A DNA stretch of 43,881 nt from Gemmatimonadaceae bacterium (GCA_035249955.1 DATFFQ010000039.1:1-43881), one strand, 5' to 3'. Counted from the stretch's first letter, positions 1,219 through 33,184 are shown. Notes: a model not told the origin generated them from the sequence alone. Program-made: numbers and translations.

Positions 1219-1327
1219 GGAGGGTGAAGTCGGTTCCCGAGAGATGTCTCAGGCTTCTGACTGGTTGCGGATGGCGGTCGTCACGGACGGACGACGGGCG
1301 GCCAACCGGGAGTGGCGGCCGGCAGGG

Positions 1328-1549: not shown

Positions 1550-1924
1550 GATGCATCTATACCAACTCGCAGCGACCAGCGCGCTCTTCTGCGCGTACCA
1601 TGATGGCGGAGGGGCCACACCCCTCGCATGAACCACAGCCCCCACCGCACACCGCGAGCCAGTTCGCCGCGTCGACGCTGGGACTCGTGGACGGCGACTG
1701 CCTGATCACGCTTCCTCCACCCGTGGAGTGCAGGGAAGATACGCCTTGTCGTCCGCGATGAGGAGTCCACGCCGTCGGCGTAGCAAGGTCCACGCCGCAC
1801 CGGAATTCGCCGGCACGCTTGCCTTCACCGCCACCGCGCGTCAGGTTGAACGTTCCGTTCGCGCCTGGCACACAGCGCGACGTGAGCGCTTTCGCCTCGT
1901 GTAACCACCTCCGAGATCGACGCA

Positions 1925-2404
1925 ATGACCCGCTCCTGGAAACCGCTCGCCCTCGTCGGCGTCGTCGCCGCGCTTGGTGCCACACTCACCGCCTCTTCGT
2001 GGCGCCCCGCCGAAGCCGACAGCCCGCTCGCGGCGGCCACTTCGATCACCGTGTACAAGGATCCCAGCTGCGGATGCTGCTCGCGGTGGGTGACGCACCT
2101 GCGTGAGGCAGGTTTCACCGTGGTGGCACGCGACACCTCGGCGATGGATGCCGTCAAGGCGAAGCATGGCGTCACGTCCGAGCTCGCGTCGTGCCACACG
2201 GCGGTCGTGGATGGCTACGTGATCGAAGGGCACGTTCCCGCCGCCGACATTCAGCGCCTCCTCGAGCAGAAGCCGCCGGTAGCAGGGCTCGCCGTGCCGG
2301 GGATGCCCATGGGCTCGCCCGGCATGGAGGGTCCGCGGACCGACGCCTACGACGTGCTGTCCTTCGACCGGCAAGGGCGCACGAAGGTGTTCTCCTCGCA
2401 CTAG
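1925..2404 (+). CDS. DUF411 family periplasmic metal-binding protein (signal peptide; CGCC motif as in copper-resistance-associated DUF411 proteins).
   Basis: The N-terminus MTRSWKPLALVGVVAALGA has signal-peptide character. ITVYKDPSCGCCSRWVTHLREAGF and the GMPMGSPGME C-terminal region are typical of DUF411. Confidence 0.75.
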   Translation: MTRSWKPLALVGVVAALGATLTASSWRPAEADSPLAAATSITVYKDPSCGCCSRWVTHLREAGFTVVARDTSAMDAVKAKHGVTSELASCHTAVVDGYVIEGHVPAADIQRLLEQKPPVAGLAVPGMPMGSPGMEGPRTDAYDVLSFDRQGRTKVFSSH

Positions 2405-2478
2405 GCGGCGAGCGCCGGGAAGCGCGGACACGCGTCGAGGGGAAGCGCGCGGGTGGCCAGCGCTCCGATCGCCTGAGC

Positions 2479-4215
2479 GTGGAGAACGGGCAGGCCACAC
2501 GCGCGGCGGACGCCGTCTACGCGGCGTTCGACCAGTATCATCGCCGTTTCCGTGAGATCACCGGGCGGGCAGCGATGCACTTCGCGGCGCGCGAATGGCG
2601 GGCCGCTCAACGCGATGCCGCCGCTCGTCTGGCGCTCTACAAAGCGCACGTGGATCAGGCCGTCGCCGTCGTGCGGCAGGTGCTGGGCGCCGCGACGACC
2701 GATCCAAACGGCTGGGCGGACATGCGGAACCGGTACGCCGAGCTGATCCGGGCCCGGGATGACTCGGAGCTCGCGGAGACGTTCTTCAACTCGATCACGC
2801 GACGGGTCTTCACCACCGTCGGCGTCGATCCGCGGATCGAGTTCGTGAGTCCCGGGGGGCGCGAGCACGACGCGGCGACCGCCGCGAGCGGATACGAGTG
2901 GTTTTCAGCGTCAGGCAGTGCGCAGATCGTGGCCCAGCGGATTCTCGAGAGTGTCTCGCTTGGCGCGCCGTACGCCGACCTCGAGGGCGATGCGCGCCGC
3001 CTGGCGCGCGTGATCGGCGATCGCATGGGAACGCTGTGGGGGCGCGAGGCCACCGACGGCGTCGATCTCGTGCCGTGGGTGTTCTACCGGAACAAGGGCG
3101 CGTATCTGGTCGGACGGATGCGTCGTGGGCGAGGAATCGTTCCGCTGGTCATCGCGCTGATGAACACGCCCGAGGGTGTGATCGTGGACGCGGCGCTCAC
3201 GACCTCGGACGAAGCGTCGATCGTGTTCGGGTTCTCCTGGTCGTATTTCCACGTGAACACCCCGTGGCCGCGGGCGCTGGTAGAGTTCCTGCGGTCGATC
3301 ATGCCCCTCAAGCGCACGGACGAGCTGTACACGGCGATCGGCTACAACAAGCACGGGAAAACCGAGCTGTATCGCAGCATCCTCGACCATCTGCACCACC
3401 CGGAGGCGCGCTTCGAGGAGGCGGAGGGAACGCGCGGTCTCGTCATGGCGGTGTTCACGCTTCCGTCGCTCAACGTGGTCTTCAAGATCATCCGCGATAC
3501 GTTTGGACCGCCGAAGAAGACCACGCGCCGGGAGGTGATCGACCGGTACCACTTCGTTTTCGTGCGCGACCGGGTCGGCCGGCTGGCCGACGTGCAGGAG
3601 TTCGAGCATCTGGAGTTCCCGCGCAGCTGCTTCCCCGACGAGCTGCTGCGGGAGCTGCTGGACGTGGCGCCGAGCTCCGTGCGCGTGGAGGGAGAGCGGG
3701 TCATCGTGACCCACGTGTACACGGAGCGCCGTCTCACGCCCCTCAACGTGTACCTCACGACCGCCCGTGAGGATGACGCCCGCGACGTGATCGTCGACTA
3801 CGGGAACGCGATCAAGGACCTCGCGCACGCCGACATCTTCACCGGCGACATGCTGCTCAAGAACTTCGGAGTGAGCCGGCACGGCCGAGTGATCTTCTAC
3901 GACTACGACGAGCTGTCCACGCTGAGCGCGTGCAACTTCCGCGAGCTACCGCAGAGTGGGAGCGTGGAGGAGGAGCTCGCCCCGGAACCATGGTTCTCCG
4001 TGCAGGAGCACGACGTCTTTCCGCAGGAGTTCCTGCCCTTCCTGGTCCCCGAGGGCCCGCTGCGCGCGGCGTTCCTGGAGGCGCACGCCGACCTGCTCGA
4101 CGTGCGGTGGTGGGAGTCGGTGCAGGAACGACTCGCCCGCGGAGAGCTGTTCGATGTCTTTCCGTATCACGAGCGCCGGCGCCTGAGGCCGGCGGAGGCT
4201 GACGCCGCTCGATGA
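2479..4215 (+). CDS. aceK: Isocitrate dehydrogenase kinase/phosphatase (AceK).
   Basis: Collinear with E. coli AceK along the whole length: FDQYHRRF..., SIVFGFSWSYF, LPSLNVVFKIIRD, HVYTERR, GDMLLKNFGVSRHGRVIFYDYDE, SEPWF, AHADLL. A GTG start at 2479 in the 2191 ORF frame gives 578 aa, the same length as the E. coli protein. The long N-terminal extension of the tabulated ORF is an alternative-start artefact. Confidence 0.85.
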   Translation: MENGQATRAADAVYAAFDQYHRRFREITGRAAMHFAAREWRAAQRDAAARLALYKAHVDQAVAVVRQVLGAATTDPNGWADMRNRYAELIRARDDSELAETFFNSITRRVFTTVGVDPRIEFVSPGGREHDAATAASGYEWFSASGSAQIVAQRILESVSLGAPYADLEGDARRLARVIGDRMGTLWGREATDGVDLVPWVFYRNKGAYLVGRMRRGRGIVPLVIALMNTPEGVIVDAALTTSDEASIVFGFSWSYFHVNTPWPRALVEFLRSIMPLKRTDELYTAIGYNKHGKTELYRSILDHLHHPEARFEEAEGTRGLVMAVFTLPSLNVVFKIIRDTFGPPKKTTRREVIDRYHFVFVRDRVGRLADVQEFEHLEFPRSCFPDELLRELLDVAPSSVRVEGERVIVTHVYTERRLTPLNVYLTTAREDDARDVIVDYGNAIKDLAHADIFTGDMLLKNFGVSRHGRVIFYDYDELSTLSACNFRELPQSGSVEEELAPEPWFSVQEHDVFPQEFLPFLVPEGPLRAAFLEAHADLLDVRWWESVQERLARGELFDVFPYHERRRLRPAEADAAR

Positions 4216-8000: not shown

Positions 8001-8333
8001 CCGTCAACTCCCGTTACAGCCCGGCAAACTGCAAGGCGACGACGTGTCGATCCGGACGCCGTCCTGATGGGTCATTGTGCGGCGGCGTCCCTGGATTAGT
8101 TTAGCGGAACACGCTCGACATGCCAACGAGGCGTCGTCGATGCCGAAGTCGCGATACCGGCAGCCCATCGCATGATGCACCGTCTGCTCCGTTTCCGTAG
8201 CACTGGCCGTCGCTCGCCCCGCAGCATCCCACCTGCTCCTTCATCACCACGACGTTGTTTCGCGCGCTCGCGGACGTCGTCCCGCGAGCTCGAACCAGCG
8301 CGCGCCGTGCTTTCATCCCTCAGGAGGTCGCCC

Positions 8334-11300
8334 ATGCCATCGCTGTCAGGCAAGACATCCTCTGCCCAGGCGCCATCGCCGCACCACCAATCGGTGTGGC
8401 GGCGATGCAGGCCCGTCTCGGTCGTGGCGTTGATCCTCCTATCGCTTGCCGCAGCGCCGGTGCTGGCGCAGGACGGCGCGGTGGGCGGCACGGTGGTGGC
8501 CGGAGCGGCGGCGACACCGATCGCCGGTGCACAGGTGATCGTGCAGGGAACGACCAACGGTGCCGTGACCGATGCCGCCGGTGCGTTCCGGATCGCCGGA
8601 CTCAGCGGCGCCCAGGTGACGTTGGAAGTGCGGCGCATCGGCTTCCGCATGGAATCGCGCACGGTCAACGTCGGTGACATGGACATTCGCTTCGTGCTCG
8701 TCGAGCGAGCCGTGGATCTCGAGGCGATCGTCGTCACCGGTACGCCCGGCGCGTCGACCAAGCGGGAGCTCGGGAATGCGGTCTCCACCATCGACGCCAG
8801 CGCGGTCAACGAAGCGCAAACGACCAACAACCTGCAGGAGCTGCTCAACGGCCGCGCCGCCGGCGTCTTCATCCAACCCACCAGCGGCGCCGTTGGCTCC
8901 GGCTCCCGCGTCCGCATTCGCGGCGCCTCGAGCTTCTCGCTGTCCAACGAGCCGCTGCTCTACGTGGATGGTGTGCGCGTCAACAACGCCACGGGCGTAG
9001 GTCCCGAGAACCAGGCGTTCGGCTCCAAGTCGATCTCCCGATTGAACGACATCAACCCCGAAGACATCGAGAGCATCGAGATCCTGAAGGGGCCCGCGGC
9101 GGCAACGCTGTACGGCACGGAAGCCTCGAACGGCGTGATCCAGATCATCACCAAGCGCGGGGCCGCCGGTGCCCCGCGCTGGAATCTGATGGTCAAACAG
9201 GGCTCGAACTTCCTCATGGATCCCGAGGGACGCTTCGAGACCAACTATCAGATCGATCCGGACACCGATGAGATCATCACCCTCGACATCGTCGAGGCCG
9301 AAAACGCTCGCGGCACGCCGATCTTCCGCTCGGGACACCTCCAGGAGTACGACCTGAGCCTCAGCGGCGGAGCCGAGCGATATCGCTACTACGTGGGGGG
9401 CGGGTTCGAGCGCAGCGAAGGTGCCGAGCGGAGCAACGACCTGGAGCGCTACAACGCGCGCGCGAATCTCTCGCTCACGCCGTCGGACAACCTCACCATC
9501 AACGCCAGCCTCGGGTACACCGATGGCGCGACGAACCTCAGCGCCGAGGCGGGCTTCGGCGGTCGCGTGTGGTCCACCGTGCTGGCGAACCCGGCTCGTC
9601 TGGTATCGCAGCCGGAGAGTCGCGGCTTCCATAGCGGCACGCCGGAGCAGTACGACCTGCTCTACAACTTCTCGCAGGACGTGGATCGATTCACGCTGGG
9701 CATGCAGGTCCAGCACAACCCCTTCCCGTGGCTGCAGCACAGGCTGAACGCGGGTCGCGATCGCACGTTGGAGGAGAACGTGATCTTCATCCCGCGGGTG
9801 GACTCGCTCCTCACCTCCGTGTTCGGGTCCGAGGCGCTCGGCTTCAAGGAGGTCAACGAGCGCACGATCACGTACACAACCGTGGACTACAGCGCGACCG
9901 CGACCTTCGACCTGACGCCATCGCTACGCTCGTCCACCTCCGGTGGGGCGCAATACTACCGGCAGCGGACGGACTCCGTGTTCGCGACCGGGGCCGTGTT
10001 CCCCGCGCCGGGACTGAGCGCCGTGTCGGCGACCACAGTCGATCGCTTCAACGCCGAAGACTTCGTCGAGGATGTGACGGTTGGCGTGTACATCCAGGAG
10101 CAGATCGCCTGGCAGGATCGCCTCTTCCTGACCGCCGCCGTCCGCGCCGATGACAACAGCGCGTTCGGCGTCAACTTCGATCGGGTCTACTATCCGAAGT
10201 TCAGCGCCAGCTGGGTGCTGAGCGACGAGCCGTTCTTCGAGGTTCCCTTCGTGAACTCGCTGCGGTTGCGCGCGGCATACGGCGAGTCGGGCAAGCAGCC
10301 ACAGAGCTTCGCCTCCCTGCGCACCTACCAGCCGGAGACGGGACCCGGCGACGTCGCGGCGGTCACGCCGCAGTTCATCGGCAACCCGGATCTCGGGCCG
10401 GAGCGTGGGCGTGAGATCGAGGTCGGCTTCGACGCGAGCTTCCTGGAGGATCGCGTCGGGCTCGAGTTCACCTACTACAGGAAGCGAGTCGAGGACGCGA
10501 TTCTCGAGCGTGAGATCGCCCCCTCGGGTGGCTTCGCCGGATTCCAGTTCTTCAACGCCGGTGAGGTCGAGAACAGCGGGCTGGAGATGCTGCTTCGCGC
10601 GCGCCCGATCGACCGGGAGTCCGTGAGCTGGGACCTCACCTTCAGCATCGGCACGAACGACAGCGAGGTGCTGGACCTGGGTACGCCGGGCCTCGAATTC
10701 GTCACCGCGGGAACGTCGCTGCGGCATCAGGTCGGCTTCCCGATCGGCGCGTGGTTCGATCAGAAGGTGGTGAGCGCCGAGCTGGACGCGGACGGCACGG
10801 CCATCAACGTGATGTGCGATGACGGGCAGGGCGGCTCGATGCCCTGTCGGGGCGCGAACGGTGTGTTCGGCGGCGGGGATGACGCCCCAGAGGTCTTCCT
10901 CGGTCGCACGACGCCCGACCTCGAGGGCGCCATCTCGTCGACGGTGACGTTCCTCGGCAATTTCCGGCTGGCGGCCCTGGTGGACTTCAAGCGCGGCTTC
11001 CGGAAGCTCGATGGCAACACGCGCGTGCGGTGCGCCTTTTTCGGCGGACGCTGCCGCGAGAACTTCTTCCCCGAAGAGTTCGACCCGAAGCGCATCGCCG
11101 CGATCCAGTCGAGTAACAATCTGGTCGACTGGCTGATCGACGACGCCGGGTACACGAAGCTGCGCGAGGTGTCGCTCACTTACCTGGTACCGTCCAACTG
11201 GGCGCAGCGATTCGGCGCCGACGCCGCAACGATCACGGTGGCCGGGCGCAATCTGCACACCTGGACGAGCTACGGCGGTCTCGAGCCCGAGGCGAACTTC

Positions 11301-11396
11301 CTCAGCGGCTCACGCGGCGGTCAGTTCAGCGCCTGGGAGCAGACGACGCTGCCGCAACTCTCACAATTCGTGGCGACGATCAACCTCACGTTCTGA
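8334..11396 (+). CDS. SusC/RagA-family TonB-dependent outer-membrane receptor.
   Basis: AGGAGG plus 6 nt upstream of ATG. Signal peptide, then a carboxypeptidase-regulatory-like region (GGTVVAGAAATPIAGAQVIVQGTTNGAVTDAAGAFRI), then plug (IEILKGPAAATLYGTEASNGVIQIITKRG), then a roughly 800-aa beta-barrel ending with a terminal F (ATINLTF). A SusD-like gene is immediately downstream. Confidence 0.9.
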   Translation: MPSLSGKTSSAQAPSPHHQSVWRRCRPVSVVALILLSLAAAPVLAQDGAVGGTVVAGAAATPIAGAQVIVQGTTNGAVTDAAGAFRIAGLSGAQVTLEVRRIGFRMESRTVNVGDMDIRFVLVERAVDLEAIVVTGTPGASTKRELGNAVSTIDASAVNEAQTTNNLQELLNGRAAGVFIQPTSGAVGSGSRVRIRGASSFSLSNEPLLYVDGVRVNNATGVGPENQAFGSKSISRLNDINPEDIESIEILKGPAAATLYGTEASNGVIQIITKRGAAGAPRWNLMVKQGSNFLMDPEGRFETNYQIDPDTDEIITLDIVEAENARGTPIFRSGHLQEYDLSLSGGAERYRYYVGGGFERSEGAERSNDLERYNARANLSLTPSDNLTINASLGYTDGATNLSAEAGFGGRVWSTVLANPARLVSQPESRGFHSGTPEQYDLLYNFSQDVDRFTLGMQVQHNPFPWLQHRLNAGRDRTLEENVIFIPRVDSLLTSVFGSEALGFKEVNERTITYTTVDYSATATFDLTPSLRSSTSGGAQYYRQRTDSVFATGAVFPAPGLSAVSATTVDRFNAEDFVEDVTVGVYIQEQIAWQDRLFLTAAVRADDNSAFGVNFDRVYYPKFSASWVLSDEPFFEVPFVNSLRLRAAYGESGKQPQSFASLRTYQPETGPGDVAAVTPQFIGNPDLGPERGREIEVGFDASFLEDRVGLEFTYYRKRVEDAILEREIAPSGGFAGFQFFNAGEVENSGLEMLLRARPIDRESVSWDLTFSIGTNDSEVLDLGTPGLEFVTAGTSLRHQVGFPIGAWFDQKVVSAELDADGTAINVMCDDGQGGSMPCRGANGVFGGGDDAPEVFLGRTTPDLEGAISSTVTFLGNFRLAALVDFKRGFRKLDGNTRVRCAFFGGRCRENFFPEEFDPKRIAAIQSSNNLVDWLIDDAGYTKLREVSLTYLVPSNWAQRFGADAATITVAGRNLHTWTSYGGLEPEANFLSGSRGGQFSAWEQTTLPQLSQFVATINLTF

Positions 11397-11433: not shown

Positions 11434-12732
11434 ATGATGCGATCGACCCAAGATCAAGCGTTACAGGTGGGTGCGCGGTGGCTGACACGCGGCCTCTCGC
11501 TGGCCGTGCTCGTCGGCTCCGTCGCCGCGTGCGACAGCTTGCTCGACGTGGACACGCCGAGCCGAGTACCGGCGAGCCAGCTCGAGCAGCCCGAGAACGC
11601 CCAGCTGTTGGTGAACAGCGCCATCGCCGACTTCGACTGTGCCTTCGGAGCGTACGTCGTGCTGGGCGGACTCATCGGCGAAGAGCTCATGGATGCCACC
11701 CAGACGGCAGACCGGTTTCCCTACGATCGCCGGGACCACCAGCCGAGCGATCGGCGCTATGCCGTGGAGACCTGCGACGACCTTGGCGTATACACTCCGC
11801 TCAACACCGCCCGGGCCTCGGCGGACAATATATTGGATCTTCTGCAGAACGTATGGACCGATGAGGAGGTCGAGAATCGCACGTCGCTCATCGCTACGGC
11901 GGCAGCATACGCCGGATATAGCTTGGTCCTGCTGGGCGAAGGCTTCTGCTCCGGCGTCATTTCCACCGTCGACGAGAATGGACAGATCGTCTTCGGATCC
12001 GAGCTGACGCCGACACAGCTACTCGAGGCGGCGGTGGAGCGATTCACGACGGCCATCGACGCCGCGTCGGGAAACAGCGGCATCCTCAACATGGCGCGAC
12101 TGGGCAGGGCCCGGGCGCTGCTCGACCTGGGCCGCTTCGCGGAAGCCCAGGCCGATGCGGCGCTCATACCCGTCGGATTCGAAGCCCAGGCCACCGCCTC
12201 CGCGACGACCATTCGGCGCCAGAACCGGGTGTGGTCGGAGAACAATCTCACCGGTCAGAACACCTCCGTGGGTGCTCCGTATCGGAACCTCAACGATCCG
12301 CGCGTGCCCGTCGAGGATATCGGCGAGACCGCTGCGGGCACGGGTATCGCGATCTGGGTGCAGACCAAGTACGCCGACGTGTCCGACCCGATTCCGATCG
12401 CCAGGTATGACGAAGCGCAGCTGATCATCGCCGAGGCCGAGCTGGAGAGCGGTGATCTGCCGACGGCGCTCGGCATCGTGAACACCTACCGCGCGCGCGG
12501 CGGGCAGGCGGCGCTTCCCGGTGGCAGCACCGCGCAGCAGATCCGCGATGCGCTGATCGATCAGCGGCGGCGGGAGCTCTTCTTGGAGGGACACCACCTG
12601 GGCGACATCAGCCGCTACGATCTCACGCTCTCGCCGCCGGCCGGTACGGCATACCACGGAAGCGGACAGTACGGAAGCCAGAAGTGCCTCGCGCTACCGG
12701 ACGTCGAGCGGCAGAACAACCCCAACCTGTAG
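11434..12732 (+). CDS. SusD/RagB-family outer-membrane lipoprotein.
   Basis: Signal with lipobox LAVLVGSVAACDS. Length and helical TPR-like composition are typical of SusD partners. It is paired with the upstream SusC-like gene, 37 nt apart. Confidence 0.8.
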   Translation: MMRSTQDQALQVGARWLTRGLSLAVLVGSVAACDSLLDVDTPSRVPASQLEQPENAQLLVNSAIADFDCAFGAYVVLGGLIGEELMDATQTADRFPYDRRDHQPSDRRYAVETCDDLGVYTPLNTARASADNILDLLQNVWTDEEVENRTSLIATAAAYAGYSLVLLGEGFCSGVISTVDENGQIVFGSELTPTQLLEAAVERFTTAIDAASGNSGILNMARLGRARALLDLGRFAEAQADAALIPVGFEAQATASATTIRRQNRVWSENNLTGQNTSVGAPYRNLNDPRVPVEDIGETAAGTGIAIWVQTKYADVSDPIPIARYDEAQLIIAEAELESGDLPTALGIVNTYRARGGQAALPGGSTAQQIRDALIDQRRRELFLEGHHLGDISRYDLTLSPPAGTAYHGSGQYGSQKCLALPDVERQNNPNL

Positions 12733-13005
12733 GGACGAGGGACGCGGGACGCGGGACGCGAACACCGGAGCCCTCTGTTTGGCCGACTAGCGAGGGACTA
12801 GAGGTAGTGATTTCCAGTAATTCAGTGGGAGGTAAGGTAAGAGCTAAGAGCGTAAAAGGGGCACACCCTTACACTTTTACTCTCTCATGCAGTACTGAAT
12901 CACTGGAAATTACTACCGCTAGTCCGTTGCTCGGTGGCCCGACTGAGGGCTTCGCCTGCGCGTCTCCAGTCCCGCGTCTCGCGTCCCGCGTGCCGCGTCC
13001 CCAGT
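12733..13005. repeat. AT-rich imperfect palindrome (foldback element or structured RNA candidate) of about 270 bp, with (GGGACGC)n outer arms.
   Basis: Outer arms: gggacgagggacgcgggacgcgggacgcg (12733-12762) against cgcgtctcgcgtcccgcgtgccgcgtcccc (about 12972-13001), which are reverse complements. Inner arms: ctagcgagggactagaggtagtgatttccagtaattcagt (about 12787-12826) against actgaatcactggaaattactaccgctagtccgttgctcg (about 12891-12930), roughly 85 percent complementary. Central AT-rich loop of about 64 nt. There is a sharp local GC drop. No credible ORF. Confidence 0.6.
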
Positions 13006-13073
13006 AGTGCTGTCTCCGCTCACGCGATAGCTTTCTCACGGCCGGACCTCGCCCTCGCAGCGGAGAACGTGGT

Positions 13074-14399
13074 ATGAGCAAGGCAGTACCCACCTCGACA
13101 CTTCCGAAGACCGAGAACGGCGCCATCGAGACCACCGATGCGCGTACCGGCAAGTCGTACACACTGCCGATCGTCGAGGGCGCGATCAGGGCGATCGATC
13201 TGCGGCAGATTCGCGTCGATGCGGACGACTTCGGCCTCATGAGCTACGATCCCGCCTTTCTGAACACGGCGTCGTGCCGCAGCGCCATCACGTATATCGA
13301 CGGCGACAACGGCATCCTCCGCTATCGCGGGTATCCCATCGAGCAGCTCGCGGAGCAGGCCACCTTCCTCGAGGTCGCGTGGCTCCTGCGGCACGGCGAG
13401 CTGCCCGCGCAGCAGCAGTACGACGGATTCGTGAGCTCGATCAAGTATCGCACCTACGTTCACGAGAACATCCGCAAGTTCCTGGAGGGGTTCCGGTACG
13501 ACGCGCATCCCATGTCGATGCTCTGCAGCGCCGTGGCCGCCATGTCGTCGTTCTATCCCGAAGCGCGCAGCATCTTCGATCCCGAGCAGCGCAACCTCTC
13601 CATGATCCGGCTGCTGGCCAAAGTGCCCACGCTGGCGGCGTTCTCGCTGCGGCACATGCGCGGTCTGCCGGCGGTCTATCCGGACAACAGTCTGTCGTAC
13701 ACGGACAACTTCCTGGCGATGGTCTTCCGCATGGCGGAGCCGCGCTACGACGTGAACCCCGTGTTCTCGCGGGCGCTCGAGATTCTGTTCATCCTGCATG
13801 CCGACCACGAGCAGAATTGCTCGACCAGCGCCGTGCGATCGGTGGGGTCGTCGCAGGTGGATCCGTACTCGGCCATCGCGGCCGGCATCGCGGCGCTGTT
13901 CGGGCCGCTGCACGGAGGCGCCAACGAGCAGGTGCTACGGATGATCAAGGACATCGGTGACACGTCGCGCATCCCGGCGTTCATCGATGGGGTCAAAAAG
14001 GGATCCGGCCGCCTCATGGGGTTCGGGCATCGCGTCTACAAGAGCTACGACCCGCGCGCCAGGATCGTGAAGCAGCTTGCCGACGACGTGTTCAAGGTGA
14101 CCGGCGTGGACCGCGATCTCGAGATCGCGCTGGAGCTCGAGCGGATCGCGCTGTCCGACGACTACTTCGTGTCGCGAAAACTCTATCCGAACGTGGACTT
14201 CTATACCGGGCTCATTTACCGGGCGATGGGCTTCCCGACCGACTTCTTCACCGTGCTGTTCGCCATCGCGCGCATGGCGGGCTGGTTGGCGCAGTGGGAG
14301 GAGATGCTGCTGGACAAGGAGCAGAAGATCGCCCGGCCGCGCCAGATCTACATCGGTCCCGGAGAGCGACAGTACCGCAGCACGCTCGCGCGACGCTGA
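13074..14399 (+). CDS. gltA: Citrate synthase (type II, hexameric class).
   Basis: Full-length match to bacterial citrate synthases: GYPIEQL, LLRHGELP, FILHADHEQNCSTSAVR, GPLHGGANE, GFGHRVYK, DFYTG. GGAGAA lies upstream of the ATG. Confidence 0.95.
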   Translation: MSKAVPTSTLPKTENGAIETTDARTGKSYTLPIVEGAIRAIDLRQIRVDADDFGLMSYDPAFLNTASCRSAITYIDGDNGILRYRGYPIEQLAEQATFLEVAWLLRHGELPAQQQYDGFVSSIKYRTYVHENIRKFLEGFRYDAHPMSMLCSAVAAMSSFYPEARSIFDPEQRNLSMIRLLAKVPTLAAFSLRHMRGLPAVYPDNSLSYTDNFLAMVFRMAEPRYDVNPVFSRALEILFILHADHEQNCSTSAVRSVGSSQVDPYSAIAAGIAALFGPLHGGANEQVLRMIKDIGDTSRIPAFIDGVKKGSGRLMGFGHRVYKSYDPRARIVKQLADDVFKVTGVDRDLEIALELERIALSDDYFVSRKLYPNVDFYTGLIYRAMGFPTDFFTVLFAIARMAGWLAQWEEMLLDKEQKIARPRQIYIGPGERQYRSTLARR

Positions 14400-14985: not shown

Positions 14986-15393
14986 ATGCGTCGCATCCCG
15001 ATCTTGTCGCTCGCCGGCGTGCTCGTGCTCGGCCTCTCGACCAGCGCGGCCGCGCAGACCGCTGCTCCGCGCGTCCTTGCGCACCGCCAAGTGGCGGCCC
15101 ACCGCGCCCACGTGCGCCACGCCTGGCGACACGACCGGCGCGAAGATGTTCGCGACCGGATGGAGAACCGCGTCGATCGTCGCGAGGACATTCGTGACCG
15201 CCGCGAAGACGTCCGCGATCGCCTGGAGGACAGGCTCGACCGCCGGCATCAGGGAGGCTGGCGCGACCGTCTGGAGGACGTATACGACCGGCGTGAGGAC
15301 CGCCGCGATCGTCGCGAGGACGTGCGCGACCGCCGCGAAGATCGCCGCGATCGTCGCGAGGATTGGCGAGACCGACGGCACGGCTCGTTCTGA
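14986..15393 (+). CDS. Secreted protein made of a His-rich segment followed by roughly 12 RREDxRD-type charged heptad repeats.
   Basis: GGAGG lies upstream of the ATG. The signal peptide is MRRIPILSLAGVLVLGLSTSAAAQ. This is followed by HRQVAAHRAHVRHAWRH, then DRREDVRDRMENRVDRREDIRDRREDVRDRLEDRLDRR...DRREDRRDRREDVRDRREDRRDRREDWRDRRHGSF. The underlying DNA is visibly tandem-repetitive. Confidence 0.6.
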   Translation: MRRIPILSLAGVLVLGLSTSAAAQTAAPRVLAHRQVAAHRAHVRHAWRHDRREDVRDRMENRVDRREDIRDRREDVRDRLEDRLDRRHQGGWRDRLEDVYDRREDRRDRREDVRDRREDRRDRREDWRDRRHGSF

Positions 15394-16080: not shown

Positions 16081-16157
16081 TGCGCGTGGCGCGTGGAGAG
16101 TCCAGTCTCGGTACCTCTCTGACTGACCAGACCCGCCACCCCTATCCAACTGTGCGC

Positions 16158-17393
16158 ATGAACCGTCAACCCGTCCACACGCTCTACGTCGCCGCCGACG
16201 CGCTCACTGCGCGGACGGCGCGTGATGCCGGCGAGCGTGCCCTCGCGGCGCTGGGCGAGTGGGCGCCGAGCCCCGGCGCGTTCGGGCGCGCGCTCGGCTG
16301 GAGCGAGGACGATGAGCTGCTCGACACTGTCTACGCCCGCGTCGTCGAGAAGCTGGAGCGGGAGCCGGTGGAGGATCTGCGCGCCGACTTCGAGGACGGC
16401 TATGGTACACGCACGGACGCCGAGGAAGATGCCGAGGCGCGGCGAGTAGGCGAAGCCATGGCGGCCGCGGCGGCGGAGCACATTCTCCCGCCGTTCTCGG
16501 GGATTCGCGTGAAGCCGTTCACCGACGAGCTGCGTGCGCGGAGCGCGCGGACGCTCGAGCTGGTGCTCACGGCGATCGTCGACCGGTGCGGGGCGCTGCC
16601 GCCGGGGATGCGCATCACGCTGGCCAAGATCACGACGGCGGAGCAGATGGCCCGGTTCGCCGACCTCCTGGGCGAGCTGGAGGCCCGGCTCGGCGTACCG
16701 GGCGGGACGCTGCGGTTCGAGATGATGGTCGAGACGCCACAGTCGCTCATCGATGCGAGCGGCGCTGTCGCACTGCCGCGTCTCATCAGCGCCGGACGTG
16801 GCCGGGTGTCGGCGGCGCACTTCGGCGTGTACGACTTCACTACGGCCTGCGGCATCGCCCCATCGCACCAGCGCCTGCGGCAGCCGCTGGCCGATTTCGT
16901 GAGGCAGACGATACTGGTGGCGCTGGCCGGCAGCGAAATTTGGCTATCCGACGGCTCGACGGCAGTGCTGCCCGTTCCCCCTCATCATGTGAGGGGTACA
17001 TCCGACGAGGAGCAGACTGGCGCTCGACGCGCAGCGGTGTACGACGGCTGGAAGCTCCACTTCGACGACGTGCTCAACTCGCTGGCGCAGGGCTTCTACC
17101 AGGGGTGGGATCTTCATCCCGCGCAACTGCCAGCCCGATTCGCGGCGGTCTACCGGTTCTTCTTGTCGGGGATGAGCGCAACCGCGTCGCGGGTACGTGC
17201 GCTGCTCGAGCGCGCCGAGTCCGGCGCGATCCAGGACGATCCGGCAACCGGGCAGGCACTGATCGCGTTTCTCGCGCGCGGGGTGGCCTGCGGCGCCTTG
17301 TCGAGCGCTGACGTGTGCAGGGCGAGCGGACTGCGACCGGACGAGCTGGGATCGGGCTCCTTCGCCGAGGTACTGCGCGCTCGGCGCCGCTGA
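16158..17393 (+). CDS. HpcH/HpaI aldolase / citrate-lyase beta (CitE)-like TIM-barrel protein.
   Basis: The start is ATG MNRQPVHTLYVAADAL. LRADFEDGYG resembles the DFEDA/DLEDA Mg-site motif of the CitE/malate-synthase superfamily. LAKITTAEQ...LRFEMMVETPQSLIDASGAVALPRLISAGRGRVSAAHFGVYDFTTACGI is collinear with the CitE core (PKVES...ALIETA...AFGAEDY). It is convergent on the uricase gene. Confidence 0.6.
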   Translation: MNRQPVHTLYVAADALTARTARDAGERALAALGEWAPSPGAFGRALGWSEDDELLDTVYARVVEKLEREPVEDLRADFEDGYGTRTDAEEDAEARRVGEAMAAAAAEHILPPFSGIRVKPFTDELRARSARTLELVLTAIVDRCGALPPGMRITLAKITTAEQMARFADLLGELEARLGVPGGTLRFEMMVETPQSLIDASGAVALPRLISAGRGRVSAAHFGVYDFTTACGIAPSHQRLRQPLADFVRQTILVALAGSEIWLSDGSTAVLPVPPHHVRGTSDEEQTGARRAAVYDGWKLHFDDVLNSLAQGFYQGWDLHPAQLPARFAAVYRFFLSGMSATASRVRALLERAESGAIQDDPATGQALIAFLARGVACGALSSADVCRASGLRPDELGSGSFAEVLRARRR

Positions 17394-17420
17394 GGCGACA
17401 CGGTTCCGGCGCGACGCCCG

Positions 17421-18272
17421 CTAGGCTCGCGAGCGCGTGACGACAGCCTCGATGAGACCGTGCGGCTCGTCGGTTGGAACGAAGATCGCATTCTCGTTCG
17501 TGAGCCCGAACGGCGCGAGGTCGACGAGCAGATGATGCTTGTTCGGCAGCGACAGGCTGATCTCGGTGATGCCCGGGCACGCGCCGAGCGCGGCCTCGGC
17601 CATGGCGTACAGTGTGTGCTGCACCGACTTGCTATCGTGCTCGGCGAATCGATCGAGCATGGCCTGGCGAGCGGCCATCCAGCAGCGGTCGTAGTCGAGC
17701 GCGGCTCCGTCGTAACGCCAGCGCGCCGAGATCGTGGTGGCCAGTAGGCGGTCGGTGGTTTCGGCGAGGGTGGTATATCGGTCGCGGGGATAGCCGGCGA
17801 AGGCGGAGTGTGCCGTCTTGAGCACGAGCAGGTCGTCCAGCCCCGCTTCGACACGCACGCCTTCGGGCCGGGCTACGACAGCCGCGATGCGGCGCTCCGC
17901 TGAGCCACGGACGAAGGCGTGCGGGTGCGGTCGCCCGCCGGCGGCGAGCCGCGACCAGTCGTGAGCCTCGATCTGGACGCTCGCGCCCGTGGGTCGTCCC
18001 GCACCGGCGAGGAAATGGCGCGCGAGCGCGATGCCGAACTCCTCCAGGCGATGCGGCTCGTGCCGCGCGGCAAACGCGTAGACGGTGTTCTTCATCGTGT
18101 CCGTCGGCAGCACCGCGCTGTTGTCGCCGTCGACGTGCGCGGCCTGGTAGTCGCCCTCGAGCTGGACGCCCACCGTGAGGTCGATGACGTCGTGCCGATC
18201 GGCGCGCCGCGTCACCTTCACCAGGCGGACGCGAGACTTGCCGTAGTTGCTGCGGGCGATTAAGGCGCTCAC
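17421..18272 (-). CDS. uox: Urate oxidase (uricase).
   Basis: YGKSRVRLVKV, LTVGVQLEGDY, DNSAVLPTDTMKNTVYAFA are classical uricase motifs. GTG start. Confidence 0.9.
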   Translation of the reverse strand: MSALIARSNYGKSRVRLVKVTRRADRHDVIDLTVGVQLEGDYQAAHVDGDNSAVLPTDTMKNTVYAFAARHEPHRLEEFGIALARHFLAGAGRPTGASVQIEAHDWSRLAAGGRPHPHAFVRGSAERRIAAVVARPEGVRVEAGLDDLLVLKTAHSAFAGYPRDRYTTLAETTDRLLATTISARWRYDGAALDYDRCWMAARQAMLDRFAEHDSKSVQHTLYAMAEAALGACPGITEISLSLPNKHHLLVDLAPFGLTNENAIFVPTDEPHGLIEAVVTRSRA

Positions 18273-18273
18273 G

Positions 18274-18615
18274 TCAGCTCCCGCGGTAGGTGGAGTAGCC
18301 GTACGGGCTCAGGAGCAGGGGGATGTGGTGGTGCCGGGTATCGCGAACCTGAAACTCGACCGTCACTTCCGGATAGAAGCTCTCGGTGCCTATCGAGGCG
18401 AAGTACGCCCCGGTGTCGAAGCGCAGGCGATAGACGCCGGGGCTGGCGAGCGCGCCGGCGTCGAGGAGATCGCGTAGGCGTCCGTCCCTGTCGGTCGCGC
18501 CACTGCCGACCACGGCCCATGTGCCGTCGCCCGCGCGTGTCTCCAGCGTCACGCGCACCCCGCTCGCCGGTCGCCCGCGAGCCGTGTCCAGCACGTGCGT
18601 GGTGATCGTGCTCAT
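18274..18615 (-). CDS. uraH: 5-hydroxyisourate hydrolase (transthyretin-like).
   Basis: MSTITTHVLDTARGRPASGVRV...YRLRFDTGAYF...YHIPLLLSPYGYSTYRGS, including the C-terminal YRGS signature. The ATG overlaps the uraD stop (ATGA). The tabulated 160-aa ORF has an artefactual N-terminal extension. Confidence 0.85.
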   Translation of the reverse strand: MSTITTHVLDTARGRPASGVRVTLETRAGDGTWAVVGSGATDRDGRLRDLLDAGALASPGVYRLRFDTGAYFASIGTESFYPEVTVEFQVRDTRHHHIPLLLSPYGYSTYRGS

Positions 18616-19118
18616 GAGCCGAAGAGGCGCTCCATCCTGAGGTGGGTGATCTTCCGCTGCTCTTCCGCGGCCGTGCGCAGCTCGGTCCGTGGATCGTTCC
18701 CGAGTCGCTGCTCGAGCACGGCGAGCAGATCCTCCGCGCTGCGGTTGGCGGCGCACACGATGTAGATGTGGCCGAAACGCTCCTCATACGCGGCGTTCCC
18801 CTTGCGCAATCGCTCCTGGACATCGGGCGCGGCGGTCGCGACGCGAGACTGCTCCTCCCCCGACCAGTCAGCCGACCGCGCGCTGGCCGGAGTGCCCGCG
18901 CGTTCGCCGATGCGCGGGTGATGACCGAATGCTTCCAGCCAATCGTCCTCGTCCAGCTGCCACCAGATCTTGTCGGCCGCGGCGCGCAGCGCGTCCAGCG
19001 AGGCGAATGGCCGGCGATCGACGACGCGGCGCGCCCATCGTTGCGAGCCGCAACAGGCCAGCAGCTCGCGAATCGCGTCCGCCGGCGGCAGCGCATTCCA
19101 CCGATCCAGGGCGATCAC
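18612..19118 (-). CDS. uraD: OHCU decarboxylase.
   Basis: LNALPPADAIRELLACCGSQRWA, FGHHPRIGE, IYIVCAANRSAEDLL. The GTG start overlaps the allantoicase stop (GTGA). Confidence 0.85.
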   Translation of the reverse strand: MIALDRWNALPPADAIRELLACCGSQRWARRVVDRRPFASLDALRAAADKIWWQLDEDDWLEAFGHHPRIGERAGTPASARSADWSGEEQSRVATAAPDVQERLRKGNAAYEERFGHIYIVCAANRSAEDLLAVLEQRLGNDPRTELRTAAEEQRKITHLRMERLFGS

Positions 19119-20122
19119 GCGCGCGGCCTGCCCGTCGTGCCGTAGAGCCGCAGCCGCGCCACGCCGCCATCGGGGAAGATGTTGAAGCGAACGTGCGTGA
19201 CAGCATCGAGGGTCTCGAGCTCGCCGAACTGATGCCGCGTGTGTGGCTGCAGGCGAGCCCTCGGCAGCAGCTCGATCCAGGTGCGCGACGAGTCGGTGAG
19301 CTCTTCCACCGACGCGCCGACCGCGTCATACCCTTCCAGCGAGCAGCTCTCCGGTGCGTTACCCTTGAAGTGATCGGTGTCCACCTCGATCCGGTGAATC
19401 ACGCCGCGTGCCCCAAGCCGGACGATGCTCCAATCGTTGCCTGGTCCCCGGCGGCGCTTCGTCTCCCAGCCGTCGCCCATGTTGAGCGCCCGGCCGGGCA
19501 TGATGAGATTGTGTCGGTGCCCGAAGAACATGTCGCTGCATGCCACGACCAAGCCGCCGTTCTCCACGGACGCGAGATCGACCTCGCCACGCGCCATCGA
19601 GAACCGGCTGGCCGGCGGCTGCACCTCCCCGAACACGCGCATCCTCGCGACGCCACCATCGGGATAGATACTGAGGCGTACGTGTGTGAAGCGATCGGGC
19701 AGCGACACCGCGAACTCGTTCCGCGCATCGCCCTCGAGCGGCGAGCGAGGGACGATGCGCGTCCACGATATCCCCTCGCCCAGCAGCTCGTCCTCACCGG
19801 ACGCACCGCTCAGCGCGCACCCCTCGATCGAGCAGTGCTCGGGGTAATTCCCCGTGAAGTAGCTCGTATCGACGACGATCCCGCGAATCACGCCCGGGAG
19901 GCCGAGCCTGACGATGCACCAATCGTGGCCCGGCGTGCGCCGGCGGCGCGTTTCCCATCCGTCCATCCACTTGCCGCGCTCCGTGTATTTCCCCTCGAGC
20001 CACACCGGCGCCGAAGCGGCGATGAGGTTCTCCTTGGGGGCGAAGAACTCATCGTTGGCGGCGAGCACCGCGCCACCCAGCCGCTCAGAGGCGAGATCGA
20101 TGAGATCGCTGAAGTGCATCAT
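19115..20122 (-). CDS. alc: Allantoicase (two tandem allantoicase repeats).
   Basis: MMHFSDLIDLASERLGGAVLAANDEFFAPKENL, then a second repeat DLASVENGGLVVACSDMFFGHRHNLI; WETRRRR and WETKRRR motifs. The ATG overlaps the allantoinase stop (ATGA). The 638-aa tabulated ORF is an upstream read-through artefact. Confidence 0.85.
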   Translation of the reverse strand: MMHFSDLIDLASERLGGAVLAANDEFFAPKENLIAASAPVWLEGKYTERGKWMDGWETRRRRTPGHDWCIVRLGLPGVIRGIVVDTSYFTGNYPEHCSIEGCALSGASGEDELLGEGISWTRIVPRSPLEGDARNEFAVSLPDRFTHVRLSIYPDGGVARMRVFGEVQPPASRFSMARGEVDLASVENGGLVVACSDMFFGHRHNLIMPGRALNMGDGWETKRRRGPGNDWSIVRLGARGVIHRIEVDTDHFKGNAPESCSLEGYDAVGASVEELTDSSRTWIELLPRARLQPHTRHQFGELETLDAVTHVRFNIFPDGGVARLRLYGTTGRPRA

Positions 20123-21480
20123 GATCGGTTGGGGATGAGGACGCGGCCGCTCGCGCCCCTGGCGAGCGTGCCGCGCTCGTAGATCTTTCGCCCACGCAGG
20201 TAGGTCGCGTCGACCACGCCCTGCAGCTCCGCGCCGGTATACGGTGTGAGCTTGTGTCGGTGCTCGAGCCGCGTGGGGTCGACGCGCAGCGTCTGCTCGG
20301 GCCACCAGGCCACGAAGTCCGCGTCGCGGCCGGCGGCGATCGTCCCCTTGCGCCCCTCGAGGCCGGCGAGCCGAGCCGGTGCCTCGCACATCCAGCCAGC
20401 AACGTCCTGGATGGCGAAGCCGCGGCGGCGAGCGCCGGTCCACGTGACGGGCAGGGACAGCTGCAGCGACGCGATGCCACCCCACGCGGAGAAAAAGTCG
20501 CCGGCCTCGCGCTGCTTCATGGCCGGCGGGCACGGCGAGTGGTCGGTCACCACCATGTCCAGCAGTCCGTCGCCGAGCCCCTGCCACAGACGCTCGCGAT
20601 TCTCGCCCTCGCGAACGGGCGGCGCGCACTTGAGCTCGGTGTGGCCGTCCTGTACCTCCTCGGCGGCGAAGTGCAGGTAGTGCGGACATGTCTCCGCCGT
20701 GACCGGCTGTCGCTCGGCGCGCGCCCGCGCGAGGAGGCTCAACGCCTCGGCGGCGGAGACGTGCACGATGTGGACGCGCGTGCCGAGCTCGCGGCAGAGG
20801 TGCAGCACGAGCCGGATCGCCTCGAGCTCCGCCTGACGAGGGCGTGAGGCGAGGTATCGCGCGTACCGCCGGCGCTCCCGCGGCTCGGTGGGAGCCGCCC
20901 CGAGCAGGTCGGGGAGCTCGGCGTGCACGAGCAGGGGGACGCCGAGCGCGGCGATTTCGCGCATGGCCGCCCGGAGATCGCGCGCCGACAGGGCCGGGAA
21001 TTCGTCGACGCCCGATGGACACAGAAAGCACTTGAAGCCGCGCGCGCCCGCGTCGCGCAGCGCCTCCAGGTCGCTCGTGTTGCCGGGGACGGCGCCGCCC
21101 CAGAACGCCACGTCCACCACACAGCGTTCCGCCGCAGCGGCCGTCTTGAGGCGCAGCGCGTCGACGCAGGTCGTCGCCGGGATGCTGTTCAGCGGCATGT
21201 CGACGAGCGTGGTGACACCGCCGGCGGCCGCCGCGCGGGTGACGGTGTCGAATCCCTCCCAGTCGGCACGCCCTGGATCGTTGATGTGCACGTGGGTATC
21301 GACGAGCCCGGACATCAGCACCGCGTCGCCGACGTCCTCGAGGGGCACGCCGGAGGGAAGGTCGTCGAAGCTGGAGAGCGCGACGATCGTTCCATCATGC
21401 ACGTGCACGGTCGCCGGACGAAGCGCTCCGTCGGCGAGCACGCGCCGTCCACGCACGACGACATCAGGAGGTCGCGGCAC
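20119..21480 (-). CDS. allB: Allantoinase (cyclic amidohydrolase).
   Basis: GLVDTHVHINDPGR, FKCFL, HAE, VTAETCPHYL, DHSP and GRDADFV are metal-dependent hydantoinase/allantoinase motifs. GTG start. Confidence 0.85.
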   Translation of the reverse strand: MPRPPDVVVRGRRVLADGALRPATVHVHDGTIVALSSFDDLPSGVPLEDVGDAVLMSGLVDTHVHINDPGRADWEGFDTVTRAAAAGGVTTLVDMPLNSIPATTCVDALRLKTAAAAERCVVDVAFWGGAVPGNTSDLEALRDAGARGFKCFLCPSGVDEFPALSARDLRAAMREIAALGVPLLVHAELPDLLGAAPTEPRERRRYARYLASRPRQAELEAIRLVLHLCRELGTRVHIVHVSAAEALSLLARARAERQPVTAETCPHYLHFAAEEVQDGHTELKCAPPVREGENRERLWQGLGDGLLDMVVTDHSPCPPAMKQREAGDFFSAWGGIASLQLSLPVTWTGARRRGFAIQDVAGWMCEAPARLAGLEGRKGTIAAGRDADFVAWWPEQTLRVDPTRLEHRHKLTPYTGAELQGVVDATYLRGRKIYERGTLARGASGRVLIPNRS

Positions 21481-22300
21481 GCGCCGTATCGCTCAGAAAG
21501 CGCTCGAGCAGGTTACCTGCCACTCGGCGCCGATAGCGTGCCGTCGAGCGGAGGTCGTCGATCGGCGCGATCTCCGCCTCGAGCTCGGCGCGCGCGTCTT
21601 CCAGGCTTGCACCGGCGGCGAGCGCGCGCTCCGTGCGCACGAGCCTGACGACCGTCGGCGCGACGCTGCCGATCGCGAGCCTCGGCGCCGGTGCGCGCAC
21701 GCCGGCGATCACGATCTTGGAGATCGCTTGCGCGGCCCTCGTGCCCACCTTCCGGAACCACTGTGAGCCGGGCACCGGGGGCACGTCGACGGCCACGATC
21801 AGCTCGTGAGGCCGCATCACCGTGCGCCGGTAGCCGGTATAGAAGGACGTGAACGGCACGGACCGTTCGTCGTCCGCGCTCCGCAGCACGACTGTCGCCT
21901 CGGCCACCGCGAGGACCGGAAGCGTATCACCGGCCGGAGACGCGTTGGCAATGTTACCGCCGAGCGTCCCGCGATTCTGGATCTGCACCCCGCCGATCAC
22001 GCTCGCGGCCTCGACGAGCATGGGCAAGCGCCGGCGCACCGTCGTCGACCGAATGAGGTCGGTGTACGTGGCCAGCGCGCCGATGGTCACCGCGCCGTTT
22101 CTCGTCCTGATGCCGCGCAGCTCGTCGAGCGGCCAGAGGTCGATGAAGCGGCTGGCGGCGAGCGTGCCGGCGTTCAGCGATACATAGACGTCTGTGGTTC
22201 CGGCGATCGGCACGAGCTCGGGATCGTCCCGGAGCATGGAGAGCGCCTCCCGCAGGGTCCGCGGCCGCCGCAGCTCGAGATGAGATACCGAGCCCCTCAT
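21464..22300 (-). CDS. xdhB: Xanthine dehydrogenase family, FAD-binding subunit.
   Basis: From MRGSVSHLELRRPRTLREALSML... with IAGTTD, RNGAVTIGALATYTDL, GTLGGNIANASPAGD (the FAD_binding_5 / CO-dehydrogenase flavoprotein pattern). The ATG overlaps the FeS subunit stop (ATGA), derived from the ORF-table frame. My own nucleotide indexing in this line was off by 1, so coordinates are +/-1. Confidence 0.8.
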   Translation of the reverse strand: MRGSVSHLELRRPRTLREALSMLRDDPELVPIAGTTDVYVSLNAGTLAASRFIDLWPLDELRGIRTRNGAVTIGALATYTDLIRSTTVRRRLPMLVEAASVIGGVQIQNRGTLGGNIANASPAGDTLPVLAVAEATVVLRSADDERSVPFTSFYTGYRRTVMRPHELIVAVDVPPVPGSQWFRKVGTRAAQAISKIVIAGVRAPAPRLAIGSVAPTVVRLVRTERALAAGASLEDARAELEAEIAPIDDLRSTARYRRRVAGNLLERFLSDTARAATS

Positions 22301-22719
22301 GCTTTCCGGATCGCGCGATAGATCGCCTCGTACCCGGTGCAGCGACAGAGATTGCCGGCGAGCCCGTCCCGGATACGGCGCATCGATGGCTTGGGACCGA
22401 GCGCCAGCGCGGCCATGATCATCCCCGGCGTGCAGATGCCGCACTGCGCACCACCCTCCTCGGCAAACGCGCGCTGCAACGGGTGCTGGCCCTGCAGACC
22501 TTCGATCGTCAGCACGTCGGTGCCCTCCACGTGCGCAAACGGAACCAGACAGGAGACCACGGGCGCACCGTTCACGAGCACGGTGCACGCGCCACACTCT
22601 CCTTCGCCGCACCCTTCCTTCGTCCCATACAGCCCGCACTCCTCCCGCAGCACGTCGAGCAGGCGCTTCATCGGGTGCGCGCTCACCTCCACCTGCGCGC
22701 CATTCAACCTGAGCCGCAC
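22297..22719 (-). CDS. xdhC: Xanthine dehydrogenase family, [2Fe-2S] small subunit.
   Basis: CGEGECGACTV (plant-type ferredoxin cluster) and QCGICTPGM...CRCTGY (second cluster). 140 aa, GTG start. Confidence 0.9.
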   Translation of the reverse strand: MRLRLNGAQVEVSAHPMKRLLDVLREECGLYGTKEGCGEGECGACTVLVNGAPVVSCLVPFAHVEGTDVLTIEGLQGQHPLQRAFAEEGGAQCGICTPGMIMAALALGPKPSMRRIRDGLAGNLCRCTGYEAIYRAIRKA

Positions 22720-33138: not shown

Positions 33139-33184
33139 AGGCGTCGATCGCCGGCCGCAGTTTCAGCCTCTTCTGGAGATCGTG

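Follow-up and report, generated by a model that had tools for sequence, protein, structure and literature searches.

A heptamer-armed foldback at the stop codon of a susD-like gene in a Gemmatimonadaceae bacterium, with a candidate terminator-like role

We analysed a 43,881-nt stretch of DNA from a soil Gemmatimonadaceae bacterium (GCA_035249955.1, DATFFQ010000039.1:1-43881), a contig of an NCBI TPA metagenome-assembled genome hereafter referred to as the window, in which a foldback occupies positions 12732-13001 between a susD/ragB-like gene and gltA, the gene for citrate synthase. At the orthologous site in related genomes, the position and architecture of this foldback recur but its sequence does not. 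Judged by sequence, the element is one of a class of intergenic foldbacks with heptamer arms, frequent among Gemmatimonadota and Acidobacteriota; there is no indication of mobility, nor is it a conserved RNA gene. In our proposal, its heptamer arrays form an inverted pair, specific to this locus, that has been remodelled in place and would serve as a terminator-like structure or 3' hairpin, and we assign this statement as a whole a probability of roughly 55%.

Anatomy of the foldback

The foldback is a nested imperfect palindrome of 270 nt, centred near 12866, the parts of which are given here on the + strand. Its left outer arm (12732-12760) consists of (GGGACGA)(GGGACGC)3 plus a G and was called by Tandem Repeats Finder (TRF) as an array of period 7 with 4.1 copies and 95% matches; the lag-7 autocorrelation in this arm was 0.95. 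The right outer arm (12959-13001; TRF period 7, 4.7 copies, 84% matches) is built from reverse-complement heptamers, i.e., about six degenerate units (GTCTCCA, GTCCCGC, GTCTCGC, GTCCCGC, GTGCCGC and GTCCCCA), and exceeds the left arm by two units. The outer arms are complementary over 29 nt at 90%, with several pairing registers between them (inverted repeats I2-I8). A preliminary description of this DNA had placed a foldback with GGGACGC-heptamer outer arms here, and both the sequence and TRF bear this out. The inner arms (12766-12826 and 12894-12954; inverted repeat I1) are non-repetitive and measured 61 nt with 80% complementarity, rather than the 40 nt or so and 85% first given. Between them lies an AT-rich centre of 67 nt (12827-12893), which had been taken for a loop of about 64 nt; its AT-richness was upheld, but it is no plain loop, as it holds an apical 12-bp stem (12847-12858/12874-12885; I11, 12 nt at 92% complementarity).

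Nowhere else in the window does GC content collapse, as also described previously. In a window of 68% GC, 100-nt values fell below 0.52 solely at 12761-12940, where the lowest was 0.43; GC was 0.43 over 12803-12917 and 0.43-0.52 in the interior. A decayed heptamer array as the source of this interior was ruled out, given that its lag-7 autocorrelation (0.28-0.29) is that of background. Separately, the interior (12761-12958) showed a marginal lag-8 autocorrelation of 0.37 (the 99% level of shuffled sequences being 0.35) but no evident repeat. The element lacks any credible open reading frame (ORF), as had been stated; the small ORFs within it were rejected as palindrome-generated or flank-overlapping frames only.

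The heptamer array and the susD stop codon TAG (12730-12732) share one base, the G that ends the codon and opens the array, and 72 nt separate the end of the foldback from the gltA ATG at 13074, in agreement with the earlier estimate of about 70 nt and a start at the susD stop. The tetranucleotide GTAG is present on either flank (12729-12732 and 13004-13007).

The predicted RNA fold of the + strand had a minimum free energy (MFE) of -173.5 kcal/mol, compared with -105.6 +/- 5.3 kcal/mol for shuffled sequences (z -12.8), and none of 200 shuffles was as good. The - strand was predicted to fold almost as stably (-162.1 kcal/mol, z -11.9), and the susD-gltA gap had the best folding energy per nucleotide among all gaps of the window. 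The element was identical in a second (ENA) assembly that differed at 36 of 21,326 other positions, and in the Logan assembly (SRR5195115, contig L210) the left half was identical before the contig broke within the inner arm. Since the arms of the foldback mismatch at about 20% of positions, and an independent assembly contains the identical element, the foldback is not an assembly artefact or chimera.

The same site in relatives

Searches with SusD and GltA homologues identified five close relatives with susC-susD-gltA-apaG synteny. The spacer between the susD stop and the gltA ATG, which is 341 nt in the window, was 328, 119 and 204 nt in three JGI 3300056388 contigs (of 5,878, 3,422 and 18,767 nt, with GltA 99%, 97% and 95% identical, respectively), 215 nt in an ENA locus, L202 (GltA 93% identical), and 202 nt in GCA_050733795.1 (L203/L204; GltA 88% identical). 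The DNA of the foldback site was compared among the window, L202 and GCA_050733795.1, and the three JGI contigs were compared by spacer length alone. In L202, a foldback with GCGTTGC/GCAACGC heptamer arms starts from the TAG stop codon (-124 kcal/mol, z -8.2), and its interior is a GC-rich hairpin unrelated to that of the window. In GCA_050733795.1, (GGGGTCA)x6 runs from the TAA stop codon and complementary units stand at the end of the spacer (-77 kcal/mol, z -5.4). A foldback was hence present at the identical site, i.e., the stop codon, in 3/3 genomes compared by DNA, with a different heptamer and a different interior in each. In a three-way alignment only the end of susD and the sequence from about 13010 to the gltA ATG were conserved, the latter being the last 64 nt or so of the spacer; within the spacer, L202 and L204 can be aligned with the window over this gltA 5' block only (13010-13073, + strand).

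These loci also illustrate how heptamer foldbacks break short-read assemblies, of which we have two examples: the end of L203 and the start of L204 overlap in (GGGGTCA)n, and L210 ends in the inner arm. Such elements can therefore be expected to be under-represented in metagenome-assembled genomes (MAGs), and in genome scans they can be mistaken for non-coding RNA genes or for MITEs (miniature inverted-repeat transposable elements).

Both of these identities had been put forward for the window element. A dedicated structured RNA (6S-like or a small RNA), or a leader, attenuator or riboswitch of gltA, would be in keeping with the extreme predicted stability on both strands and with a site directly upstream of gltA. 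However, the palindrome is replaced by unrelated sequence in the relatives and its flanks alone are kept, the 64 nt next to gltA among them, a pattern that the preliminary description had itself named as evidence against a functional RNA. A covariance scan against Rfam found nothing at gathering level, either in the region or in the whole window; in E-value mode, the only match over 12500-13300 scored 18.6 bits (E = 2), where the gathering score is 96, and was noise. None of 11 more distant Gemmatimonadota gltA loci had the element either; it was absent, with susD not upstream, at L002-L011, L017, L058 and L076. A consensus scan found no sigma-70-like promoter at the locus. The G-U-compatible mismatches, previously taken as a sign of selection at the RNA level, showed no strand bias: there were 9 G-U pairs in the predicted fold of the + strand and 8 in that of the - strand, and among the differences between the arms 7 transitions fit wobble pairing on the + strand and 6 on the - strand, the remaining 14 being transversions. 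Conservation of the flanks only in relatives, and the lack of any Rfam match, exclude a conserved RNA gene or a leader of gltA, and an RNA identity of any of these kinds, largely refuted by the orthologous loci, is scarcely credible.

An insertion is somewhat easier to entertain, albeit still very improbable. A foldback-type MITE, with heptamer-array termini and an AT-rich foreign core, might have entered at the susD stop or in the loop of an older heptamer hairpin, and this would account for the long terminal inverted repeats, an interior of such low GC within a 68% GC genome, the polymorphism of spacer length among close relatives and the GTAG on either side. The left GTAG is, however, the stop codon itself and the right one is part of a flank conserved among the relatives, so that there is no convincing target-site duplication. 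Nor was a second copy of the AT-rich interior, or any homologue of it, present elsewhere in the window, in 2.1 Mb of fetched loci, in JGI metagenome contigs or IMG/VR (searched with exact 23-mers), or in plasmid and phage collections. Three different foldbacks at one position would moreover need three independent insertions of unrelated elements. The MITE reading of 12732-13001 is accordingly unsupported.

In the mechanism that we favour, arrays of (GGGACGC)n and its complement close a non-repetitive palindromic interior, the whole having been formed and reshaped where it stands. Replication slippage by 7 nt would alter the number of units within an arm, and would therefore leave the arms unequal in length and able to pair in several registers. 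Template switching between the arms of a quasi-palindrome is an established mutational mechanism and, together with or in place of selection for pairing, would keep the arms complementary. Slippage combined with template switching or selection would therefore maintain a foldback at orthologous sites while its unit and its interior are replaced.

Tandem-repeat-armed foldbacks and gene 3' ends

Period-7 runs of GGGA/TCCC, with the G-run followed by the C-run, were found at two sites only in the window (12732/12970 and 37233/37316). The second site is a further foldback with heptamer arms (37228-37345, - strand) of 118 nt, with GGGAYTR-type arms and an MFE of -54 kcal/mol (z -3.7), and it too contains inverted partner arrays (37232/37306). 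On the + strand it reads GGGGACTA GGGATTG GGCATTC GGGATTGG ... CCCAAT CCCCAAT CCCTGGT CCTCAAT CCCTGG. It is flanked on one side by a conserved ORF for a 71-amino-acid membrane protein (37357-37572, - strand) and on the other by lemA (36625-37206, - strand), and on the minus strand its G-rich arm opens about 11 nt past a stop codon. This foldback was absent from L205 and L206 (LemA 95% identical), which have a 77-nt spacer and a plain hairpin only, and a different hairpin took its place in L207 (LemA 92% identical).

To survey other loci, we paired TRF arrays with reverse-complement arrays in 81 gltA loci (1.43 Mb). Foldbacks with tandem-repeat arms, each with its own unit and with period 7 dominant, were found in Gemmatimonadota (L008, L076), Acidobacteriota (L041, L044, L046, L059, L060, L064, L069), Chloroflexota (L065) and others. 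The combined census of fetched loci comprised 49 foldbacks, about 41 of them of period 7, and several contigs carried two foldbacks of different heptamers. Gemmatimonadota had 2.4 of them per 100 kb and Acidobacteriota 2.8, and Actinomycetota had 0 (in 581 kb). The (GGGACGC)3 array itself was found in at least 120 metagenome stretches; across 80 such loci, taking one array each, a complementary array lay downstream for 19 and upstream for 9, and the interiors between paired arrays were locus-specific and 10-510 nt long.

Several loci deserve individual mention. The nearest architectural analogue of the window element, although possibly an assembly artefact, is L154 (reverse strand, 1060-1682), where (GGGACTC/GGGACGC)n arms of about 90 nt surround a palindromic interior of about 510 nt (MFE -476 kcal/mol). 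An Acidobacteriota MAG (L060) has some 24 copies of GGGTTCC opposite some 12 of AACCCGG at 16123-16505 (MFE -241 kcal/mol), and two further heptamer or 10-mer foldbacks in the same 21-kb locus, one of them right after gltA. In the Gemmatimonadales MAG SMAG_U229 (L076), 10-mer arms of (GGGCGGTSNA)n and (CACCGCCYTN)n fold at 553-653 (-83 kcal/mol) in a divergent-looking gap directly upstream of gltA, and another foldback, of 9-mers (GCGGCAAGG), lies at 8447-8550. A second Gemmatimonadales MAG (L008) carries about 15 direct octamers (GTTGAGTC) at 18290-18420, in what appears to be a divergent intergenic region and with no inverted partner.

The position of these foldbacks relative to genes supports, at the level of the class, a role at gene 3' ends. 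A convincing gene 3' end was found within -12 to +30 nt of 34/86 testable foldback sides, compared with 2.2% of random positions; seven foldbacks fill convergent gene gaps. Stop-codon adjacency was used for this comparison, rather than orientation classes, as the ad-hoc gene caller based on GC at third codon positions (GC3) misclassified the second window foldback and L202. T-rich tails were present on 12% of foldback sides vs 3% in controls, and a few foldbacks, e.g., L041 13048-13132, have the look of a canonical bidirectional terminator. What these observations best support is a putative role as a 3' hairpin or terminator-like structure, and the window foldback may mark the end of the susCD transcript. 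As we envisage it, the susC-susD transcript would carry a very stable 3' hairpin starting at its stop codon, which could act as a terminator lacking a U-tract and/or as a barrier to 3' exonucleases, and the foldback would also insulate a separately promoted gltA from read-through. A terminator-type structure had been listed in the preliminary description; it is the most plausible of the listed roles to survive, but a consensus scan found no canonical intrinsic terminator, i.e., a GC-rich stem-loop with a U-tract, on the + strand.

A number of observations count against this proposal. No U-tract follows the stem, the sequence past it being CAGTAGTGCTGTC, and 270 nt is far beyond what a terminator needs. 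The AT-rich, non-repetitive interior is unexplained by heptamer slippage, as it has no period-7 signal. One relative with a 97% identical GltA has a spacer of a mere 119 nt, and a large foldback is therefore dispensable. In the census, the random-position control took in coding DNA, which overstates the enrichment at 3' ends; no 3' end was called next to 15/37 of the foldbacks that could be tested fully, by a crude gene caller that misses small genes; and some foldbacks lie between genes that look divergent, as at L076 553-653. Finally, at L084 1142-1643, a small ORF encoding a lipoprotein-like signal peptide (MKKFLSLLILFGAACAG...) lies between (GGGACGC)3 and its complement, and inverted arrays are therefore not always placed around non-coding DNA.

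Much of this would also be expected of a neutral or mildly selfish by-product, in which lineage-specific 7-nt slippage and template switching inflate small hairpins that serve no function. This is the main rival to a functional foldback and a serious one, although we regard it as unlikely on balance. Close relatives vary in sequence, length and presence, as seen in spacers of 119-341 nt and in the loss of the lemA-locus foldback from L205 and L206; units change from locus to locus and arms are unequal in length; the absence from Actinomycetota is a strong lineage bias, as would be expected if the replication or repair machinery gave rise to the foldbacks; and no regulatory role was seen for the comparable repeats of Xanthomonas (Rehm et al., 2015; PMC4692102). 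What the by-product explanation accommodates less readily is that a foldback stands at exactly the same stop-codon site in all three genomes compared although its sequence has been replaced, and that foldbacks adjoin gene 3' ends far more often than random positions do. Bacterial deletion bias is established, and 270 nt of useless DNA should be lost under it.

The left arm of the window element, with its four units, is also a canonical G3N4 x4 quadruplex motif. Indeed, on either strand of the window, the only canonical G-quadruplex (G4) motifs (G3+N1-7 x4) are the two G-rich arms, at 12732-12760 and 37232-37261. It is conceivable that, until the C-rich arm is reached some 240 nt further on, (GGGACGC)4 forms a G4 in the nascent RNA or in transiently single-stranded DNA, and that a switch between G4 and hairpin tunes read-through into gltA or the gltA promoter. 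The number of units, exactly four, matches both the preference seen in Xanthomonas and Nostoc and the repeats reported to form G4 in vitro (PMC4692102), and the ortholog in GCA_050733795.1 has the G-rich (GGGGTCA)n. By contrast, the GCGTTGC unit of the L202 ortholog is incapable of forming G4, as are many units of the class (e.g., AACTTCC, GTTCAAA and ATTCGCG), and, after transcription of the whole element, a G4 should lose out to a duplex of about -170 kcal/mol. We consider such a switch at this locus even less probable than an inserted MITE.

A bolder extension of the functional reading, which we think improbable though less so than either the MITE or the G4 switch, is that these foldbacks form an actively regenerated functional class across phyla (Gemmatimonadota, Acidobacteriota, some Chloroflexota and Xanthomonas). 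Its members would be U-tract-less terminators or 3'-end insulators whose stems are rebuilt by 7-nt slippage and template switching, with selection keeping a foldback at the stop codon while the unit is swapped (GGGACGC, GCGTTGC, GGGGTCA) and with a competing G4 switch in the G-rich versions.

Genomic setting and comparison with known systems

The foldback follows a gene for a susC-like TonB-dependent receptor (8172-11396) and the susD/ragB-like gene (11434-12732, + strand; Pfam SusD_RagB, E 2.7e-13; NCBI name RagB/SusD family, protein HJR62625.1), and precedes gltA (13074-14399, + strand; Pfam Citrate_synt, E 5.6e-135) and apaG. Within the conserved block 5' of gltA, positions 13028-13035 read TAGCTTTC, which by its sequence may be a -7-like promoter box of gltA. 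The -7 promoter element of Bacteroidetes is TAnnTTTG, which this box resembles, and TAnnTT(T/A) boxes were also seen ahead of gltA at further Gemmatimonadota loci. Tested as a promoter motif in general, TAnnTTTS was not enriched in the window (3 matches vs 2.1 expected). No tRNA or tmRNA genes were found in the window. The gene calls at about 1-4200 and 17400-24400 of the window (from L001) include aceK (isocitrate dehydrogenase kinase/phosphatase) upstream of the locus and, downstream, a purine-catabolism cluster with uricase, transthyretin-like HIU hydrolase, OHCU decarboxylase, allantoicase, an amidohydrolase and xanthine dehydrogenase subunits. Two longer tandem repeats, at 15174-15362 (42-nt unit x4.4) and 33845-34098 (66-nt unit x3.8), probably belong to repeat-containing proteins; the second is strongly A-skewed and lies inside a called coding region (33116-34729).

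The locus is ordinary for its lineage, and the turnover of the unit at a fixed site offers a handle on an old and minor question. Reports that heptamers are over-represented between the genes of bacteria go back to 2007, with details given only for Xanthomonas and Nostoc and no function found, while the architecture described here is common in two poorly studied soil phyla, Gemmatimonadota and Acidobacteriota. The susD-gltA spacer amounts to a natural experiment, in which one orthologous site holds three heptamers and three interiors in spacers of 119-341 nt, with GltA 88-99% identical. Conservation of position and structure can therefore be separated from that of sequence, and function can be tested against a mutational by-product.

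Several known families of bacterial repeats invite comparison. Repetitive extragenic palindromes (REPs) are 20-40 bp long, with stems of 5-13 bp, and number from tens to thousands of nearly identical copies tagged by GTAG or CGTC, many of them tied to RAYT transposases (PMC3733652). REP, BIME and REPIN elements are, like the foldback, extragenic palindromes, with proposed roles in termination and mRNA stabilisation, and their head-to-head dimers can form large hairpins (PMC3733652). The window element, at 270 nt, is unique in sequence within the window and the fetched loci and has tandem-repeat arms, whereas the former are short, tagged and of high copy number, and an identity with them was rejected.

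Bacterial MITEs, such as the cyanobacterial Nezha, share with it a non-coding sequence and long inverted termini. The eukaryotic Foldback (FB) transposons, in which the long inverted termini consist of short units repeated in tandem, have termini of the same kind. Unlike either, the window element had no dispersed copies in our searches, no convincing target-site duplication and no partner transposase that we could see, and the relatives carry unrelated foldbacks at this site.

Intrinsic terminators without a U-tract have been described in high-GC bacteria. Both they and 3' stabilisers of the REP type resemble the foldback in having a GC-clamped stem-loop right after the stop codon, between co-directional units, and some members of the foldback class have T-tails; the stem in the window, known here as a predicted fold, is ten-fold longer than that of an intrinsic terminator.

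The cyanobacterial short tandemly repeated repetitive (STRR) sequences of Calothrix and Nostoc have the heptamer unit CCCCA(A/G)T. They too are tandem 7-nt intergenic units, and CCCCAAT occurs in the C-rich arm of the second foldback and CCCCAGT in the first. STRR sequences differ in having a few genome-wide consensus units, mostly in direct arrays, and the resemblance of the units is probably coincidental.

The closest parallel is provided by the heptamer repeats of Xanthomonas, where each genome has about 185 intergenic arrays of (GGGAATC)/(GGGANTN)n (Rehm et al., 2015; PMC4692102). Four units are favoured, and the arrays lie 0-50 bp from stop codons or overlap them; 70-75 convergent inverted pairs per genome are capable of forming stem-loops, and most arrays are transcribed (PMC4692102). 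The same loci vary widely in length and sequence between Xcc and Xac, and the repeats had no link to mobile elements and no regulatory role or function that could be identified (PMC4692102). In Nostoc, the unit is GGGGA(C/T)T with few inverted pairs, G4 formation in vitro was reported for the repeats of both genera, and Calothrix PCC7601 had been reported to have three heptanucleotides in tandem (PMC4692102, Rehm et al.).

In its sequence, the window element displays the following features of that description: tandem heptamers with a G3-4 tract, four units and a G4 motif; an array at a stop codon in a convergent inverted pair; and orthologous loci that vary in length and in unit (GGGACGC, GCGTTGC, GGGGTCA). 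The arrays numbered two in the 43.9-kb window and 2.4 per 100 kb in related Gemmatimonadota loci. It differs from the Xanthomonas and Nostoc repeats in its host phylum, Gemmatimonadota, and its unit, GGGACGC, and is known here from sequence alone; in its non-repetitive, palindromic, AT-rich interior of about 200 nt; and in the lack of a fixed genome-wide unit, GGGACGC and GGGAYTR being found in one window. Such foldbacks were not described for Gemmatimonadota or Acidobacteriota in the literature that we searched, which is no proof of novelty. The class itself is known, and the present element adds to it the phylum Gemmatimonadota.

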